Origin: a bacterium
Lineage (GTDB): Bacteria > SAR324 > NAC60-12
Direction: 5' to 3'
NCBI GenBank assembly: GCA_965205865.1
Contig: CBDBHR010000027.1
Location: 128,001-192,000, forward strand
DNA: 64,000 nt
This document shows, in pieces, positions 317 through 47,184 of this stretch; position 1 is the stretch's first letter; the number at the start of each line of letters is the position of its first letter. The position numbers were made by a program, and so were the translations under genes. Under the pieces are notes generated by a model, which had not been told where the DNA came from, searched no databases, and saw nothing but the letters and a program-made list of their open reading frames with translations.

Positions 317-465
317 TGTTTTTCTCCTTTGATATGATCGTTACCACACACTCGCTGAGGAGATTTGTTTCATAGAGCCTCCTGTTCAGAGTTTTCTGAT
401 AGTTTAATATGATTGAATTTAACAGAATAGGAACAGAATTCAAATAACTAACCTGAGTTCAAGAT

Positions 466-740
466 CAATGGTTCTGACATTTTTTTTAATTCTTAATAAA
501 TTGAAAATAAATCATTTCAAATACTTAGAAAAAGTATCTGAATTATTTACAACTCTGAGTCAGTTTCTCAGTTTGAAATAATTCAAGCAATCCCGATGAC
601 TGTGTCATGCATGACTTGATCAGGCATCCAGGAGTTCTTTGGCAGGCCCCCTGGATTCCTGGGCAAGCCAGGAATGACATTAATTCTGTGTACGGAACAA
701 AGAATACTTCATAGGTATTTCAAAACTGTTAGAAGTATTG
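466..740. mobile_element. MITE family C nested in MITE A copy 1
   Basis: Imperfect TIRs CAATGGTTCTGACA / TGTTAGAAGTATTG (11/14); 7-bp TSD TCAAGAT (459-465, 741-747); absent from the other two family A copies. Confidence 0.85.
604..678. repeat. GTC-tagged REP-like palindromic doublet (inside MITE C)
   Basis: GTCATGCATGACTTGATCAGGCATCCAG ... CTGGATTCCTGGGCAAGCCAGGAATGAC. Confidence 0.8.
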
Positions 741-801
741 TCAAGATAAGAATTTAATAAATTCAATATTTTATGGAATCTTCATATCTTAGAGAAACCT
801 T

Positions 802-877
802 GTCATTCCTGCGAAAGCAGGAATCCGGAGATATGCAGCCAGACTGAAATCTGGATCCCCGCTTTCGCGAGGATGAC
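802..877. repeat. GTC-tagged REP-like palindromic doublet (inside MITE A copy 1)
   Basis: GTCATTCCTGCGAAAGCAGGAATCC ... GGATCCCCGCTTTCGCGAGGATGAC. Confidence 0.9.
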
Positions 878-1068
878 ATATACACTAGGATACTCATATT
901 ATTGAAGATTTATGTCGAACTCAGGTTAACTGATTGTCAGCGATGAATTGAGCAAATAACGTCTGAATGAGAGGTTACTGGAATGGAGCGAGCTCGTGTC
1001 CTGCGACACGAGCGGCGGGGAATTCCAGGACCTTTTGTTAAAATCCCGGCTTTGTTCTTTTAAAGATG

Positions 1069-8004: not shown

Positions 8005-8159
8005 TGTTTTCTCCTGTCAAGGGGTTATGGAAAATTACAACCGAACGTACCCGGTTCCATATCAATTAGCAAGAAAAAAGCCAGTGGATTTTCCGGGGGA
8101 GGCAAATAATGACAGTTTGCATTTGATTATTTGCGCTTCTGCGTTTTATGGTACCTCAT

Positions 8160-8340
8160 GTTACCGTGAAGAAAACTATCTAAACTACTGAAACTATATG
8201 GTTTGTTATTTTTCTTCATCCTCCGGTGTGAAAGCATAAGTTTTCATGAAGGTTACCGTGAAGAAAACTATCTAACCTACTGAAACTATATGGTTTGTTA
8301 TTTTTCTTCATCCTCCGGTGTGAAAATAATTTACATGAAG
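8160..8340. repeat. Tandem duplication of a ~90-bp unit (92 + 89 bp)
   Basis: Units 8160-8251 and 8252-8340 both begin GTTACCGTGAAGAAAACTATC and end CATGAAG; internal TGAAGAAAA/TTTTCTTCA inverted repeat. Confidence 0.9.
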
Positions 8341-8398
8341 GTTACGTGTATATTTTTTGCATTCAGCGGTTTCCATGAATACGCTTCCCCCACAAGTG

Positions 8399-8775
8399 TG
8401 TCATTCCTGGCGAAGACCAGGAATCCAGGAGTCGCCATCATGAAAACCTACTACGTTTATATCTTAGCAAGTAAAAGAAATGGCACTTTATATATTGGAG
8501 TGACCAATGATCTTCTTAGAAGAGTTTATGAACATAAAAACAATCTCATAGAAAGATTTACCAGTAAATACCAAGTACATCAATTGGTATACTATGAGAC
8601 CACTTCAGAGCTAACAGCTGCTCTCCGGAGAGAAAAACAACTTGAGAAATGGAAACGAGCTTGGACAATCGAACTCATTGAGAAAAATAATCCTCAATGG
8701 ATAGATTTATATGAAACGTTTTAGTCACCCTGGATCGCCAGCAAAGTGGATTGCTGGTCTTCGCCAGGAATGACA
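8399..8775. mobile_element. REP-GIY-YIG-REP cassette
   Basis: TGTCATTCCTGGCGAAGACCAGGAATCCA (8399-8427) inverted at 8747-8775 with one mismatch, bracketing the nuclease gene. Confidence 0.8.
8440..8724 (+). CDS. Stand-alone GIY-YIG nuclease (YhbQ/UPF0213-like), 94 aa
   Basis: YYVYILAS...LYIGVTNDLLRRVYEH...ALRREKQL; AGGAG 8 nt before ATG 8440. Confidence 0.92.
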   Translation: MKTYYVYILASKRNGTLYIGVTNDLLRRVYEHKNNLIERFTSKYQVHQLVYYETTSELTAALRREKQLEKWKRAWTIELIEKNNPQWIDLYETF

Positions 8776-8826
8776 ACTCGATGAGACGCATAACTGCAAA
8801 AATCGTTCACCTAACATCAGTTATAT

Positions 8827-10520
8827 TAGTGTCTGGCAGAAAAATACAATTTTACTAATAGGAGGTGTAGAACTCGCGAGAACAGCCATTCTTGAACAAG
8901 CCATATTTTAGATAGCTGAAGCTATTTTTCTTTGAGATCCCCACTTTTTTGTTAACCCCCCTTTTTTTGGACACTCGCCCCCCCTCCCAGCCTCCCCTTT
9001 TGTTTCAGAATGGGGAGTCACTCTTGGGTTCAGGCCGCTTTTTTGTAGGGTCCTCGTTTACGACGCTGCCGTTCTTTTTGCTGTTCACGCAGGACGGTGC
9101 CGAGACGGTGGATGTTTTTTGCAAGTACAGCCAGAGCGACATAGCGTTCGAACCATGGTTTCGTTGAAGCGCGCCCTGCGAATGATTTGGCTCATGAGTT
9201 TTTTTGCAGAGCCCATGTACTCCCGTAAGCGCAGCAGTTTCAAGGGGGAGCGCACCCGTTTTTCCAAAAGTTCCAGGCGCGTCTGGGCCCGCAGGTGATA
9301 CGCTTGGGCCATGAGGAGGTATTTGAGATATTCCTTGCGCCTCTTTTCTTCGCGGGCACGCCTTATTTGCTGAGCTTTCGAAGTTGAGGTCCTGAGCTTT
9401 TGGATGAGACGATACTGCTTTTTGAACTGCCAGGTGTTGTTCCTGTATTGTCGCCAGCCAGCCAGCTGGCAACTCCGTGAAAGCCTGGCGCATTCTTCAA
9501 TCGTCTTGCGTATGGCGTCGAAGAGCAGGTTGACGTCGGTCGGATAATGCGCATTGGTTTCAACCACAAAGGAGTCGCAGCGTGCACGTAGCGCCCTGCT
9601 TGAATCATGAAATTCAACTTTCTTCTCCGTCCGAACTCGGGGTGCCCCATCTTTTGGGGCGTTTTTTTTTACCAGTTCATGTCCGGCTTTGACTACCAAC
9701 TGATTGATCTCATCGAGAATCTCAGGCGTGAAAAGACGCAGGTTATCCTTGATCGTCTGCCGGTTGTACGTCGTTATGTCCTCCCCGGCAAAGGACCTCC
9801 CGACCTCCATGTCCGAGCATCTGCCGGATGGTGTCGTGATGGTTAGCCAACTCATGGATACGGTCGTAATCGCTGTTGAGACTCGGGCGCAGTACGCCAA
9901 GCGCCAGAATCTTCCACTGCTCCATCCCGGGACGCCCAAGACGGGGGTCCGCTTTGCGATGCCTGTCTTCGTTGCTCAGGCCCGGACCGCTTCGCGAGGG
10001 GATGACCCGTTCCGGAACCTTGAATACCGATGCGCGTAATGCTGGCGAGGCGTATATGTATTGCAAACCGCGAAGGATAGGGGGGATGTCATCACGAGAC
10101 TTGAGATCCAACTCGATGGCGGCAACGTCGACTTCGCCGAAATTCATCTGGGGCTCACGTATGGTGCGCATAAAATTTCAAATCTTGAAGATTTACGGAA
10201 AAACGAAAGAAACCAGTCAGAAGATACTGTAACTGCAACGATTGACCCTTCATGCGAGGTGGCGCGCACTCGGGTTTTTTCAAATCTTCGCGTCATAAAT
10301 ATCAGTTTATCATCTTGATATAATTAATGAAAGACTTTACATGATATTTAATGGTATTCACCTATTTTTAAGAAACGAAGATTTTGGAAAAACTCATCAA
10401 AGATTCCATTTTTTGCTGATTTTGGCCATCTGAACACTGCATCAAACCAATCTTCATCCTGTGAAATTGAAGAATTATCATTTAATATCAGCAATTTGAG
10501 TATTTTTCGGCCAAGCACTA
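8827..10520 (-). mobile_element. Insertion sequence, ISNCY (ISDol1-like), defective
   Basis: TIRs TAGTGTCTGGCAGAAAAATAC / GTATTTTTCGGCCAAGCACTA (18/21) around transposase remnant; no clean TSD. Confidence 0.8.
9030..10171 (-). pseudogene. ISNCY transposase, frameshifted and internally deleted
   Basis: N-term ELDLKSRDDIP..LRGLQYIY, GRPGMEQWKILALGV; then RCDSFVVETNAHYPTD in a second frame; joins directly to the C-terminal ERYVALAVLAKNIHRLG...KKAA*. Confidence 0.85.
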
Positions 10521-11464: not shown

Positions 11465-12892
11465 ATGGAACATAGTGCAAAGCCAGCACCCGGTGCAACG
11501 TTTCGATTCAAAAATATCGGACCCGTGAAAGACGCCGAACTCGAGCTTGGCGATCTGACCATAATCGCCGGCCGCAACAACACCGGCAAGACGTACATCG
11601 TCTATACCCTCTATGGTTTCCTGAAGATGTTGAATTCGTCTAATTTCCATCTTTTCTTGATGGACAAGAGATTCCCTGATGCTCAGTTCCCTGATTTAAG
11701 GAGCATCGCGGAGAAGCTTCTCCAAGAAGATCACGCCAGCCTTTTGCTGGATGAACAAATCCTTGAACGGCAAGGGAGGGAAGTGATTCAGGCAATCGCC
11801 CGTACTTTCTCGAAAGAATTTTTGCCCGGAGTGTTCAGTTCCCAGCACCATGATTTCGAAGGAGCCTCCATAGAGGTGAATCTCCACGAAGACAATGCTA
11901 ACAATCTCCGGCCTTTAAAAGTGAACGCCGAAGGAGTTATCCTTTCAATCGAGCATGATGGAAAGGAACTTCGAATAAGTCTTGAGAAGCAAGATAAGAA
12001 AGCTAATATCTACGACCTGCGTTTCCATATTGCTTATATTTACTTGATGTTTTTGTGTGGAGATCTATTTCCTGAGCCTTTCATCCTTTCTGCCGAACGT
12101 TTCGGAATATCGCTTTTCTACAGAGAACTGGACTTCACCAAGAACCAATTGGTCGACCTGTTGCAGAAATTGGGCGACGACAAAAACAGGGAGAGGATTT
12201 CTCCCTATCTGTTCATAGACAAAGCGACTAGCCGCTACGCGATGCCGATCAAGGACAACATCGACTATACGAGAAGCATTCCCGACCGGAGAGGAAACAT
12301 AAGCGAGATCCATGACCACAAACTTTTCGACCATATCAAGGATATGATGGACGGCTATTACAGGGCCTCCGGTGACGAAATACGTTTCATCTCGAAGTCG
12401 CGCGGCAAAGGGCGCAGTTTTAACATCCCCTTGCATCTTGCGTCCTCCTCGGCCCGTGGATTGTCGGATTTCTACTTTTTCCTGCAGCACGTTGCGAAAA
12501 AGGGGAATCTTCTCATCATCGACGAACCGGAAAGTCATCTCGACACCGCCAACCAGATTCAGTTGGCGCGGTTACTGGGGCGCTTCGTGCGGGCCGGTTT
12601 GAAGGTGCTCATCACCACGCACAGCGACTACCTCATCAAGGAGTTCAACAACCTCGTCATGCTGAGCAAATCGTTTGCGGATAAGGAAGCGGTTGTCAGG
12701 AAGTTGAAGTACCAGGCAGACGACTTCCTTTCTCCCGATTCCGTCCGCGCGTACGTAGCCGAGAATAATAGTCTGACCCGATGTAAGGTGGATGCGCTTG
12801 GCATCGATATGCCGGTCTTCGACAAAACCATCGACGAGATCAATAATGTGGCAAACGAGCTCGCATCGCGAGTATCGGATGATGCGGAGTAG
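11465..12892 (+). CDS. ABC-type/AAA_15-21 ATPase, defence-associated type
   Basis: KNIGPVKDAEL, Walker A GRNNTGKT, LASSSARGL signature-like, Walker B LLIIDEPESHL, ITTHSDY. Confidence 0.9.
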   Translation: MEHSAKPAPGATFRFKNIGPVKDAELELGDLTIIAGRNNTGKTYIVYTLYGFLKMLNSSNFHLFLMDKRFPDAQFPDLRSIAEKLLQEDHASLLLDEQILERQGREVIQAIARTFSKEFLPGVFSSQHHDFEGASIEVNLHEDNANNLRPLKVNAEGVILSIEHDGKELRISLEKQDKKANIYDLRFHIAYIYLMFLCGDLFPEPFILSAERFGISLFYRELDFTKNQLVDLLQKLGDDKNRERISPYLFIDKATSRYAMPIKDNIDYTRSIPDRRGNISEIHDHKLFDHIKDMMDGYYRASGDEIRFISKSRGKGRSFNIPLHLASSSARGLSDFYFFLQHVAKKGNLLIIDEPESHLDTANQIQLARLLGRFVRAGLKVLITTHSDYLIKEFNNLVMLSKSFADKEAVVRKLKYQADDFLSPDSVRAYVAENNSLTRCKVDALGIDMPVFDKTIDEINNVANELASRVSDDAE

Positions 12893-12894
12893 AA

Positions 12895-13443
12895 ATGAGT
12901 ATTAGTTCTTGCCTCAAAGGGATTCTTGCTGATAAGGCGCTGTTATCGCCATCGTGCAAAGGCATGATGACTCTCATAGAAGAGAACAATGATATGGAAG
13001 TAGAAGTTTTTGGAGTCCCTTCTGACCTAACCGTTATAAACATGAAAATGATCGGTAGTTTATCGGGCCTGAAAGATGGGGAATGGAAGCAACGCTGCGA
13101 CTATCTGATAGTGCGAGAGGAAGAAGGCGTCGATCATGCCGTATTCGTTGAACTGAAACGAACCTTGAATAAAGACAAAAAGAAAGCATTGGATCAGCTG
13201 CGCAGGTCTGTTCCGTTCTTGGAGTACTTTCGCAGGATATGTGAACTTCAATTTACAGACGATCCTATCCAATCGGAAATAGCATTGCGGTATGTCATGA
13301 TCGGTGAGAGGATCAGTACGAGGTTTGACAAACAGCCTGTAAAGCCGGGTCAAAAGCTGCCTTCCGAGGAATTCAAGAACATAACGGTCACTCCGTTTGT
13401 CGTCAGATCAAGAATCGGTTTTGATCGTCTGTGGAGTGGATGA
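12895..13443 (+). CDS. Hypothetical protein, probable PD-(D/E)XK-fold nuclease partner of the ATPase
   Basis: RCDYLIV...AVFVELK...ALDQL motif; starts 2 nt after ATPase stop. Confidence 0.65.
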   Translation: MSISSCLKGILADKALLSPSCKGMMTLIEENNDMEVEVFGVPSDLTVINMKMIGSLSGLKDGEWKQRCDYLIVREEEGVDHAVFVELKRTLNKDKKKALDQLRRSVPFLEYFRRICELQFTDDPIQSEIALRYVMIGERISTRFDKQPVKPGQKLPSEEFKNITVTPFVVRSRIGFDRLWSG

Positions 13444-13981: not shown

Positions 13982-14064
13982 CGCCTAATTTCCCGTTCTG
14001 TGGAGCTTCCCATCGAACAGCGTGGTGTGCAGGTCCTCCGAGGTGCCCGCTGGATTACTTAAAT

Positions 14065-14282
14065 AACCTGAGTTCGAGATAAGAATTTAATAAATTCAAT
14101 ATGTTATGGAATCTTCATATCTTAGAGAAACCTTGTCATTCCTGCGAAAGCGGGAATCCGGAGGTATGCAGCCAGACTGAAATCCGGATCCCCGCTCCCC
14201 CCTTTCGCGGGGACAAGTTTCACGAGGATGACATATACACTAGGAAACTCATATTATTGAAGATTTATGTCGAACACAGTTT
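14065..14282. mobile_element. MITE family A, copy 2
   Basis: AACCTGAGTTCGAG / GTCGAACACAGTTT ends; TSD AAAT (14061-14064, 14283-14286); central REP doublet. Confidence 0.9.
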
Positions 14283-14643
14283 AAATAGAATTTGAACAGA
14301 CCATCAATAATCCCGCGGTAGTCAGTCAGGGGCGGTGACTTGCTATGGAACTCTTCGTCCGCCTTAAGAAAGTCGGTCCGATCGTCCGGGACATGGAATA
14401 CGGCATTTCGGAATCGTGAGAATGTTGCCAGAGAGTCCTTCGTAATCCGCTCCTCGATCTCTCTGCGTTTCAGCTCAGGTCTGTTTGAAATTACCTGTTC
14501 ATATTCACGAAGAGGTTCCGCCAGAAGAGCTGAAGATACTATGATCGGCGATGTTCGCAACTCAGCCTGCCTATAATCCCTTACCATCTCGAGCGGCAGA
14601 ATCTCTTGCGCCAATTCTCGCACCATTTCATCACTGTACAAAA

Positions 14644-20465: not shown

Positions 20466-20634
20466 TAATTTTTGACAAATTTCGGCGTCTTTTATTTTCC
20501 AGTTGACAGTTCCTCTGTCATCCTGGCGAAGGCGGGGATCCATCTTCGTGACTACCACTGGATTCCTGCCTGCGCAGGAATGACTAAAAAGGCGGCAAAC
20601 TGTCAACTACTTTTTGCTATTTTTGAAGGGTCCC
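20466..20634 (-). mobile_element. Dispersed repeat / MITE-like family B, copy 1 (REP doublet 20517-20584)
   Basis: Reverse complement closely matches 47017-47184; one sharp end GGGACCCTTCAAAAATAG; other end fuzzy. Confidence 0.8.
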
Positions 20635-20900
20635 CAAATTTCTATTCAGATTGTATAAAAATCGGTTCGAGTCGGACACTATCAATTTTCTTCGAGTCTG
20701 AGTAAATTTTGCTGAAAAATAGCTTGTATATCCAATTTATTCATTCAATAATTTGCCAGCATGAATATTATTATAGATCGTGAATCGAATGGAGCAGCAA
20801 TTTGAGAACGAAAAATCGGGGACCCGGACATGTTCAGTGACCGCGAATTTTTTCATGTCTTTAAATTTCTCATGATACTACGCACTCTTTTTGACCGGCA

Positions 20901-39085: not shown

Positions 39086-40777
39086 TTCGAGAGTCCGGAC
39101 AGCATTTGTTTCCAATTTGACCCATGAATTCCGTAAGGTAACGATCCGATTGAATACGGGGGCTTTGGGTTGGGAATCAACAGGGTCCACAAAGAAATAT
39201 CCTTCTCTTTCAAACTGGTAGCGATCTCCAGGTTTCGCATCTTGAAGGTTCCTTTCCAAATGGCCTTTCACGATTTGCAAAGAGTGAGGATTGAGCATGG
39301 CGGCGAGATCCGTGTTTCTTTCTGCCGGATTTTTACTAAGCAAGAGCCGGTCATATAGGCGCACCTCGGCCACAAAGGAGTAGCTTGCCGAAACCCAATG
39401 AATAACACCTTTGACATTGCGGCCTTTTGGTTTCTTTCCCAGGGTGTCCGGATCATAGATGCAACGTAATTCGGTTACGTCCCCATTTTCATCTTTGATC
39501 ACCCGGTCACAGCGGATCACGTATCCATAACGAAGTCGCACTTCTTTGCCATGGGAGAGGCGCTTATATTTGGGAGGTGGCACCTCAACAAAATCATTGC
39601 GATCGATATAGATTTCCCTGGTAAATGGAAGGATGCGAGTTCCCATCTTTTCATTGGTCGGATGAAATCGGGCTTCGAGTTCTTCTACTTGATCTTCCTG
39701 AAAATTCTCGATGACGACCTTCAAAGGGTGTAAGACCCCCAGCACACGAAACGATCTCTCTTCCAGGTTCTGACGAACGCAGTCTTCCAGAACATACATT
39801 TCCGTGAGGGACTCGCTTTTGGAAATGCCAATGCGCTGGCAAAAGTTTCGAATTGATTTCGGTGTGTAGCCCCTCCGGCGAAATCCAGCCAGAGTCCACA
39901 TTCTCGGATCGTCCCACCCTCGGACGTGTCCTTCTTCCACCAATGTGATCATCTTGCGTTTGCTCATCAGCGTGTGTTCCAAATAGAGTCTGGAAAACTC
40001 TATCTGACGAGGATGACAAGTCGTTGCCAGTTCATCCAGAAACCAATCATAGAGGGGACGGTGATCTTCAAATTCCAGAGTGCACAAAGAGTGGGTGATT
40101 CCTTCGATGGAATCGGAAAGGCAATGAGTGAAGTCGTACATGGGATAAATCACCCACACATCTCCGGTTTGATGGTGAGACATGCGTCGAATTCGATAGA
40201 TAGTCGGATCGCGCATATTAAGATTAGGGGATGCCATGTCGATTTTGGCACGCAGGACATGAGTGCCGTCTTGAAATTCACCGGCCCTCATACGTTCAAA
40301 CAGATCCAGATTTTTTGTCACGCTCCGATTGCGATCGGGGCTGTCTTTTCCAGGCTCTTGCAATGTTCCACGGTATTCGCGAATTTTGTCAGGGCTCAGA
40401 CTGCACACGTATGCTTTGCCTTTTTTGATGAGAGTTATCGCGTGGGCATAAAGCTGCTCAAAGTAAGCGGAGGCAAAACGCAATCGGTCCTCCCAATCAA
40501 AACCGAGCCATCGTATATCTTCTTTAATGGCTTCCACGTATTCCGTGCGCTCCATACCGGGGTTGGTGTCATCAAACCTCAAATAACACTGACCTCCGTT
40601 TTCGGCTGCCAGACCAAAATTCAAACAGATTGTTTTGGCATGTCCAATATGCAGGAAGCCGTTGGGTTCGGGTGGAAAACGAGTAATCACCCTACCTCCA
40701 TTTTTACCGGCTTTCACATCTTCATCAATGATATTCCTGATGAAATTAGTAGCAGCGACTGATTCAATCCTGTTCAT
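39053..40777 (-). CDS. glnS: Glutamine--tRNA ligase
   Basis: [28 protein letters not shown]. Confidence 0.97.
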
Positions 40778-43576: not shown

Positions 43577-43805
43577 TTGAATCTCTTTTGTTTTCTGTGA
43601 ACCCATTGTTTAATTACAGAGAACTATCGTTGAATTAAATAATTCGCTCATTGCTTCCATAGACAGGCAGCCACGATTTTGTCTTTTTGGTAAGGTTGTG
43701 CTTGCTGGTCTTCCCACAAATTGTCCATATTGGCCTTGTTGAGAACTTTCCTTACAAAAAAGTTCCACGCGTTTTCTGATCATGACGAAACCGGAGACAT
43801 TCCTT

Positions 43806-44039
43806 AACCAGAGTTCGAGATAAGAATTTAATAAATTCAATATGTTATGGAATCTTCATATCTTAGAGAAACCTTGTCATTCCTGCGAGATCCCTGCGTA
43901 CGCAGGGAAGGAATCCGGAGGTATGCAGCCATACTGAAATCCGGATCCCCGCTCCCCGCTTTCGCGGGGACAAGTTTCGCGAGGATGACATATACACTAG
44001 GATACTCATATTATTGAAGATTTATGTCGAACTCAGGTT
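43806..44039. mobile_element. MITE family A, copy 3
   Basis: AACCAGAGTTCGAG / GTCGAACTCAGGTT ends; TSD CCTT (43802-43805, 44040-44043). Confidence 0.9.
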
Positions 44040-46310: not shown

Positions 46311-47016
46311 AAATCGCTTTCTCGAAAAACAGGTTAAATACCAATGCGCAATTGAAATGTACTTGCTATGATTGGGTCTGATAGTATTTACATGGACCGC
46401 TCCATAGAGACAATCCAAAATTGTTAATTGGGGGAAAATTTGGCACGAAATCTACAGATGGGTGTTTGGAATGAAATCATAATCTCGTTTTCGTGCGTTT
46501 TCAGGCTCACCGTTTCAAAAAGAATCGTACAGAATCTTAAACGCAATCAACCTTCGGGGGCGCAATTGAACTAAAGAGACAAATGAAGTGCGCTACTTCG
46601 AATTGTATCATTCTCATTCCCCGGTAAAACAGACAGAAACTAGTGATTTCCCGGAGTGGGGGGTTGCAGTTTCCCGCTCACTCCACAGGCCACGGACAAC
46701 CAGGACCATCTATGGCATTTTAGCATACGCTCCTATTATCAGCGTCAAAATGAAAAAGATCAGGTATTTCGTGATTTCAAGCTGATTTTACCTTATACTA
46801 CAGCCAACGAAATCAAAGGTATTTTGCATCACCCTCTCAAAGTCAAATAGTGTCAAAAAATCTCTGTATGCAACTATGGGATCAGTTTCTCAGTCTGGTC
46901 GTTTGGAAGGAACCGGTATATATTGGACAACAAGCTTTAATTCAGCTACCTCGTCTTTCTCCGAGCTTGTACGAATTGCGCTTGTCTCGTGATTGCAAAG
47001 AGGTATCTGATTTTTT

Positions 47017-47184
47017 GGGACCCTTCAAAAATAGAAAAAAGTAATTTTCAGTTTGCCGCCTTTGTTGTCATTCCTGCGCAGGCAGGAATCCAGTGGTAGT
47101 CACGAAGATGGATTCCCGCCTTCGCGAGGATGACAGAGGAACTGTAAACTGGAAAATGAAAGGTGCCGATTTTTTAATAAAATT
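47017..47184 (+). mobile_element. Dispersed repeat / MITE-like family B, copy 2 (REP doublet 47067-47134)
   Basis: Matches reverse complement of 20466-20634. Confidence 0.8.

Follow-up and report, generated by a model that had tools for sequence, protein, structure and literature searches.

A GIY-YIG nuclease with paired hairpins as the putative passenger of ISAba11-group transposon ends in a SAR324 bacterium

In REPIN-RAYT systems, a tyrosine transposase of the HUH/Y1 type is flanked by its repeat, which bears a GTAG terminal tag. A different enzyme, the single-domain GIY-YIG nuclease Ssn, is described in the available text of Chenal et al. 2025 (PMC11893778) as binding a tagged hairpin (SRM) on single-stranded DNA and cutting a few bases upstream of it. 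The hairpin stands on both sides of the gene in 42% of Ssn homologues, and the NTS-ssnA-NTS arrangement was likened there, as a hypothesis, to an insertion sequence and to IS200, REP and BIME elements. The search for NTS-gene association in the same portion of that article kept one homologue per genome, and multicopy expansions could therefore not show in it. A further relative is the class of CGTC-tagged REPs of Di Nocera et al. 2013 (PMC3733652), for whose spread a broad spectrum of transposases, in place of a dedicated one, was suggested in the accessible part of that paper.

The locus considered here lies in a window of 64,000 nucleotides, the whole stretch of DNA that was analysed. Set beside SsnA of Neisseria meningitidis (CDD cd10448; available text of PMC11893778), it has the same 94-aa GIY-YIG protein, the same Y/Y/E residues and an inverted SRM on both sides, and like the Ssn/NTS system it is accompanied by over a hundred repeats genome-wide; it differs in that the module is multicopy, lies within DDE transposon ends and is decaying, with three near-invariant positions changed. 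With the CGTC-tagged REPs, as far as the open portion of PMC3733652 describes them, it shares the (C/T)GTC tag, the 8-9-bp stem, the CCA tail, the head-to-head dimers and the lack of a flanked tyrosine transposase, whereas most dimers here form part of larger repeats, several of which have ends and duplications of their own. The REPIN-RAYT system, also cited in the available parts of PMC11893778 and PMC3733652, resembles it in enclosing an enzyme gene between inverted hairpins and in having gene-less doublets and BIME-like arrays, but here no HUH/Y1 enzyme is involved, the hairpin tags are TGTC, CGTC or AGTC rather than GTAG, and dispersal is bounded by DDE-type ends. The core of the locus consists of three features:

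8399 to 8428, plus strand: left SRM hairpin with TGTC tag, 8-bp stem and CCA tail, an exact fit to the published SRM motif
8440 to 8724, plus strand: ssn gene for a single-domain GIY-YIG nuclease of 94 aa, by Pfam and homologue alignment
8746 to 8775, minus strand: right SRM hairpin, which fits the SRM motif with one stem mismatch

A 94-aa GIY-YIG gene between 29-bp inverted repeats (28/29) had been recognised in a preliminary description of this DNA, and it was confirmed by the open reading frame, Pfam and the alignment of the arms. The Pfam GIY-YIG domain (PF01541) is matched at 56.6 bits against a cut-off of 22.6 over residues 4-76, and the length of 94 aa lies within the range of about 94-100 aa of the single-domain Ssn family. 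Over 86 aa, the protein shares 59% identity (E 3e-38) with a Neisseria gonorrhoeae protein of 94 aa which sits among eight NTS matches and is probably the SsnA orthologue; the E value is thus below the Ssn threshold of 1e-10 to SsnA by proxy, the N. gonorrhoeae protein having been used instead of the N. meningitidis sequence. Residues Y7, Y18 and E65 align with Y6/Y17/E64 and do not vary among 95 homologues; of 8,000 scored candidates, at least 7,990 proved to be homologues of the window protein. Because of the identity with an NTS-flanked Neisseria protein, the Y/Y/E residues in register and the fit of both arms to the SRM motif, the gene with its inverted hairpins is, on sequence grounds, an Ssn/SRM module as known from the available text of PMC11893778. 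The earlier view that nuclease and hairpins belong together was thereby borne out, the pairing being one already published (same source, as available). The window protein also carries the changes G39R, K69E and K76T at positions that are 97-100% conserved, the substituted residues occurring in none of the 95 distant homologues, and this copy is probably weakened or dead.

The inner arms (8399-8427 and 8747-8775) are 29 nt long and 97% complementary (28/29), and the left arm does lead into a ribosome binding site as originally proposed, AGGAG being found at 8427-8431, directly 3' of the arm. The right arm, with its one stem mismatch, is predicted to fold at -2.0 kcal/mol versus -6.8 kcal/mol for the left, whose loop has 6 nt versus the 4-5 typical of CGTC-tagged REPs. 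The SRM motif is matched six times in the window (mean 0.19 and maximum 1 in 100 shuffles) and 140 times in the genome (18-27 in three shuffles). One window match, at 40316, falls outside the named repeats, and an arm fitting the strict motif is present in only three of the six doublets. Visible hairpins were missed at both ssn loci of the congener G001 and at C30:871131, and the strict motif therefore undercounts. With that undercounting motif, no strict SRM was found within 1.5 kb of the GIY-YIG matches of five other relatives (48-55% identity). The pattern first offered for the repeats, GTCAT.C.....G.ATCC / GGAT.C.....G.ATGAC, did not survive in its literal form, since the true gap is 10-16 nt: with a 5-nt gap it gave two matches, a number equalled in 34 of 100 shuffles. 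It was also upheld that no RAYT explains the repeats, none of the 15 Y1_Tnp (PF01797) matches having a strict SRM from -700 bp to +1,000 bp.

The module sits inside a larger unit, the parts of which are as follows:

8155 to 8820, plus strand: whole putative non-autonomous ISAba11-group (IS701 family) element with SRM-ssn-SRM, 485 bp long without the 181 bp of IS110 minis inserted in it
8155 to 8164, plus strand: left terminal inverted repeat, outer part (CTCATGTTAC); its end is the GTTAC core that IS110 uses
8165 to 8256, minus strand: mini-IS110 no. 1, 92 bp including one core copy, both ends shared with the autonomous IS110 at C23 and C28
8257 to 8345, minus strand: mini-IS110 no. 2, 89 bp including one core copy, in tandem with no. 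1
8346 to 8361, plus strand: left terminal inverted repeat, inner part, comprising most of the outer 21-bp arm described earlier
8795 to 8820, minus strand: right terminal inverted repeat, CTGATGTTAGGTGAACGATTTTTGCA on the minus strand, with one core change

The outer inverted repeat noted previously at 8341-8361 and 8795-8815 is present (21 nt, 76%, 16/21), and the structure proved longer than had been thought: the left end starts at 8155, split by the two IS110 minis, and the right end reaches 8820. DNA of the ssn cassette gene occurs at 18 loci of the genome, the copies aligning from outer repeat to outer repeat and not from hairpin to hairpin. An exact AT-rich target duplication of 7-8 bp borders eight of the 13 two-ended copies and one further copy matches at 6/7, as against matching duplications in 3 of 156 non-cognate flank pairings taken as a control. 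The five two-ended copies without an exact duplication include this 6/7 case and the window copy, whose flanks (ATGGTAC and TTATATT) do not match. A few bases to its right lies a broken ISNCY-family element (window 8826-10330; two frames, 134 and 71 bits), related copies of which are present in G001, and which may have rearranged the flanks of the window copy. Gene-less copies in the same shell are few (e.g., C28:49274-49460) and are deletion derivatives of the cassette. Because the copies end at the outer repeat with 7-bp duplications, and not at the hairpins, the shell appears to have moved as a unit, and the outer repeat is, by this comparison of copies, the terminal inverted repeat and true boundary of a mobile unit of about 485 bp.

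Pattern scans found the same ends, with 7-bp duplications, on 203-210-bp elements without hairpin or gene in G008, a genome of another genus, and the terminal repeat at the 3' end of transposase genes; most matches of the two collection-wide scans for the terminal repeat were single and chance-like. The shell ends are common to L063, a transposase relic (NF049921 match, E 8e-15), L099, a transposase with 273 bits to NF049921 (cut-off 250) that they bound, L117, a complete element of 1,193 bp with both ends present, L119, and L152-L155. Four plasmid homologues of L117 were examined, all of which end in CTGATGTTACGC or CTGAAGTTACGC, one being annotated as a ‘group ISAba11 transposase’. An exact 7-bp duplication was seen in one of these four and none in the other three, that of L117 is 6/7 or 4 bp, and L119 has none. 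Since the same ends bound ISAba11-group transposases, the shell would be a non-autonomous element of the ISAba11 group (IS701 family), a family label which rests on the NCBIfam model NF049921 and the one plasmid annotation, with the family assignment following the available text of PMC9771954. As in the ISAba11 group and in non-autonomous cargo elements such as MITEs and mobile insertion cassettes, the terminal repeats start with CTGATGTTACG or close variants, the target is AT-rich, there is no transposase of its own, and a passenger gene is carried. It differs from these relatives in that the passenger is an Ssn module and in the 7-bp duplication, canonical IS701 making one of 4 bp according to the accessible part of PMC2266710; the 7-8 bp of the cassette copies depart from that canonical length.

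An intact helper transposase was not found in the genome assembly (91.9% complete, 30 contigs), the best trace in which is a weak 28-aa match (E 0.007), and no longer element with shell ends and a 7-bp duplication occurs within 6 kb. The PF01609 transposases of the genome were rejected as helpers, none of the 13 representatives examined having shell ends. Two other readings of the ends were likewise abandoned: that of the GTTAC/GTAAC ends as integron attC sites, the junctions lying outside the core and with duplications, and that of a 3-bp duplication, which was superseded by the 7-bp ones. A miniature element of about 155 bp (about 45-50 copies, e.g., G000:C23:73.6-73.8 kb; 3-bp TAA/TTA duplications) has an internal inverted repeat (CTGCTGTTACGTG...TTTTGC) that looks like an ISAba11-type end.

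A contig from sequencing run X1, compared with the copy at C23:86405-86886, skips 489 letters, or 482 + 7, with a 7-letter ambiguity, and thus represents an exact empty allele; it is one contig from one of four runs, whose shorter side has 23 letters, and the threshold was 90%. Contigs of runs X3 and X7 read from the C23 cassette into the flank. Viral contigs gave only two fragmentary matches, and RNA runs covered only small shares of the stretch. The congener G001 has one copy of the cassette ssn, 88% identical and without the shell, and is without the cassette at two syntenic sites among four loci tested, the third and fourth not being syntenic on both sides. Empty sites at the nucleotide level were discarded for G001, whose intergenic DNA is too diverged to show a single target copy.

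The amplified gene itself appears to be decaying. An intact frame is kept in six of the 12 near-full cassette copies, which share 89-98% pairwise identity, and pN/pS among them is 0.99 for distinct variants. It is 0.81 once the disrupted parts, which are codons 1-8 of the C29 copy and a stretch of C30:970706, are omitted, on 11 synonymous and 36 non-synonymous variants (p = 0.58 versus neutrality); the ratios count 47-65 variants against the majority sequence under a model without gene conversion among copies. Against the G001 copy the ratio is 0.28, a value which, given the stop at codon 5 of that copy, therefore reflects mostly past selection. These ratios point to ssn as a passenger that decays neutrally across the cassette copies. 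A second ssn, 55% identical, lies at C30:871131 (G000:C30:870856-871131, L142; G001 counterpart L133); it is syntenic in G001, has an open frame in both genomes and its own, different set of hairpins, and is the likelier of the two to be a working, maintained enzyme.

The terminal repeat of the shell is also the target of an autonomous IS110 of 408 aa (NF033542, 271 bits; cut-off 140), of which two intact copies, 99% identical, are present:

G000:C23:185644-187275: full IS110 copy
C28:49453-51078: full IS110 copy

These two, a truncated copy and 11 natural minis of 89-92 bp provide 14 left junctions. The shell repeat accounts for 13 of them, 12 at its GTTAC core and one as the tandem joint in the window; the last lies elsewhere. 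The upstream non-coding region holds the stretches CTCATGTTA, as read in the C28 copy and with one change in C23, and TCACGTAAC, which resemble guides and match the two target sides in the order described for bridge RNAs. A G010 relative, 80% identical, has other letters at both stretches, and three of its four left junctions match its own second stretch; an IS110 relic in G008 abuts a shell-type terminal repeat. The element is thus a candidate IS110 with predicted RNA guides aimed at the ISAba11-group terminal repeat. It shares with the bridge recombinases of PMC11208160, as far as the available text describes them, a DEDD recombinase, an upstream non-coding region and two target-matching stretches, and with these and IS4321/IS5075 the insertion at one fixed core inside the terminal repeat of another element. 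IS4321/IS5075 target the terminal repeats of Tn21, according to a title cited in the accessible part of PMC11187229, and are hence a precedent for aiming at the end of another transposon. What differs here is the target, an ISAba11-group end, and the 11 natural 89-92-bp minis beside two full copies.

The six gene-less doublets of the preliminary description (604, 802, ~14135, 20517, ~43876 and 47067) were all found in place, each inside a member of three other multicopy families of miniature elements:

450 to 929, plus strand: family B copy with ACCTGAGTTCGA ends and doublet 802-877, interrupted by family A
466 to 740, plus strand: family A element of about 275 bp with doublet 604-678, nested in the family B copy
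14064 to 14283, plus strand: family B copy with the doublet at 14135
20482 to 20638, plus strand: family C copy of about 150 bp, ends approximate, with doublet 20517-20584
43805 to 44039, plus strand: family B copy with the doublet at 43876
47016 to 47166, minus strand: family C copy, ends approximate, with doublet 47067-47134

Families A and B have terminal repeats of their own. All 10 complete copies of family A have 5-7-bp target duplications. Family B, also present in G001, has 54 copies, 38 of them with 6-8-bp duplications, and shares its ends with a fragment that resembles an IS982 transposase; family C has nine complete copies with conserved ends, their positions being approximate. At window 450-929, family A was inserted in family B with a 7-bp duplication, and two doublets therefore stand 200 bp apart. 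Across the genome, 181 raw matches yielded 118 head-to-head doublets in which at least one hairpin is good; both flanks are repeated in 102 of these, one in 11 and neither in five, against a high background, 104 of 300 random AT-rich 45-mers being repeated too. The earlier proposal that the doublets are non-autonomous derivatives spread by the nuclease was not sustained, each of the six being the middle of a larger multicopy element, although by family they are plausible substrates of Ssn.

Hairpins and other mobile DNA meet at several further places. In another genus, a family C-like shell with a different SRM doublet (L084:250-700; G008:C107) lies inside the non-coding end of an IS110 relic. 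An element of 1,737 bp with CAGGCTGTTGCAG ends and about six copies, which we take to be IS1182-like, is repeatedly inserted inside SRM hairpins (G000:C28:186-188 kb, C23:32-34 kb, C30:1316 kb), and at several loci, including family B copies, the GTC tag of SRM hairpins has within it an ORF-less stretch of about 0.9 kb, presumably group II intron-like by its ends (L001:2720-3640; G000:C23:187.3-188.2 kb). Pieces of the ssn cassette form BIME-like tandem arrays at G000:C30:58600-65050 and C28:58300-58800; the start of one 44-bp tandem unit lies 5 nt 5' to the GTC tag, near the SsnA cut position, and the other array joints, as read by eye, lie about 8-13 nt from the tag or within the stem. Inside the constant A and B shells, hairpin arms and spacers vary, swap between types and grow internally, and a single family A allele that lacks the hairpin retains the GTCAT tag, which fits a short-repeat deletion and not a clean empty site.

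Taken together, these observations very probably describe a known Ssn nuclease system in a new vehicle, spread by other transposases, and not a new REPIN-like system. At its core, the enzyme would bind its own hairpin in single-stranded form and cut the strand a few bases 5' of the tag, an activity to be expected by family membership from the available text of PMC11893778. One SRM-ssn-SRM module would have come between the ends of an ISAba11-group insertion sequence in this lineage, and a transposase acting in trans, whose existence we infer, would have copied the unit of about 485 bp into AT-rich 7-bp targets, with ssn riding as a passenger and decaying neutrally. An IS110 with guides matching the terminal repeat would then parasitise the shell, having left two minis in the window copy, and the gene-less doublets would have multiplied likewise, as cargo of other miniature elements. 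The REPIN/RAYT-like reading put forward initially thus stands as regards the pairing of enzyme and hairpin and the absence of a RAYT, but not as regards the amplification, the cassette having been multiplied by a DDE-type shell while the gene decayed. It is improbable that the cassette and the gene-less doublets owe their mobility to Ssn, in the way that REPINs owe theirs to a RAYT. The architecture does mirror REP-RAYT-REP, as the hypothesis in the accessible text of PMC11893778 would have it, the repeat is carried by no RAYT among the 15 Y1_Tnp matches, BIME-like arrays occur at ssn remnants (C30:58.6-65 kb, C28:58.3 kb), and of 118 doublets, five are unique on both flanks and 11 on one; yet it is the outer repeat, with its 7-bp duplications, and not the hairpins that bounds the amplified unit, no selection on the gene is detectable across copies, in G008 the shell moves with neither hairpins nor gene, and the hairpin-less family A allele speaks for short-repeat deletion rather than a clean empty site. 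Scarcely credible is a movement of the cassette by the IS110 recombinase with the outer repeats as recombination sites: two intact copies at 99% identity, a core in both outer repeats and the failure to find an intact IS701-type helper in this assembly would suit it, but the cassette junctions lie 5 bp outside the core with 7-bp duplications, whereas IS110 recombines at the core (available text of PMC11208160), several copies are without IS110 sequence, and the ends equal those of ISAba11-group transposons.

A mixed course, in which DDE enzymes disperse the shells while Ssn, by cutting beside the hairpins, remodels them locally (exchange of arms, growth of tandems, capture into or deletion from miniature elements), is possible, if on the unlikely side, and is compatible with the spread by other transposases favoured above, to which it adds. 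The variable, swapping and growing arms and spacers inside otherwise constant A and B shells, the 44-bp unit beginning 5 nt 5' of the GTC tag and the hairpin doublets mid-element in at least four unrelated shells agree with it; on the other hand, the remaining array joints fall within the stem or at about 8-13 nt from the tag, palindromes can undergo such changes by slippage and gene conversion without a nuclease, and other mobile elements also insert at hairpins. An extension of this course, by which Ssn would be the missing driver of CGTC-type repeats, its cuts seeding, swapping and expanding doublets in place and DDE transposases broadcasting them, is doubtful. Were such a two-step economy true, a genome with at least four hairpin-bearing shells, a kept second ssn and an amplified, decaying ssn would be a natural test bed for it.

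With the spread of a passenger by other transposases as the preferred reading, what is new here is the vehicle, an Ssn module as transposon passenger, the pairing of nuclease and hairpin being already published. In the literature searched, which lay largely outside the subscription journals, Ssn was met only in PMC11893778, and nothing was found on Ssn as a passenger or on IS110 in ISAba11 ends. Multicopy ssn and gene-less doublets can mimic self-mobility where, as here, they would be hitch-hiking, so that outer ends should be checked before such copies are counted as evidence; the many ssn copies in this genome do not count as evidence for a nuclease that spreads itself or its repeats. They add one-genome sequence evidence for the suggestion in the open portion of PMC3733652 that CGTC repeats are spread by various other transposases. 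A by-product is the putative natural IS110 aimed at the end of another transposon, with 89-bp minimal donors and a reprogrammed relative. Elsewhere in the window (11465-13443), an AAA-type ATPase gene, for which no NCBIfam family scored above its cut-off, is followed by a 182-aa gene in a possible defence-pair layout.
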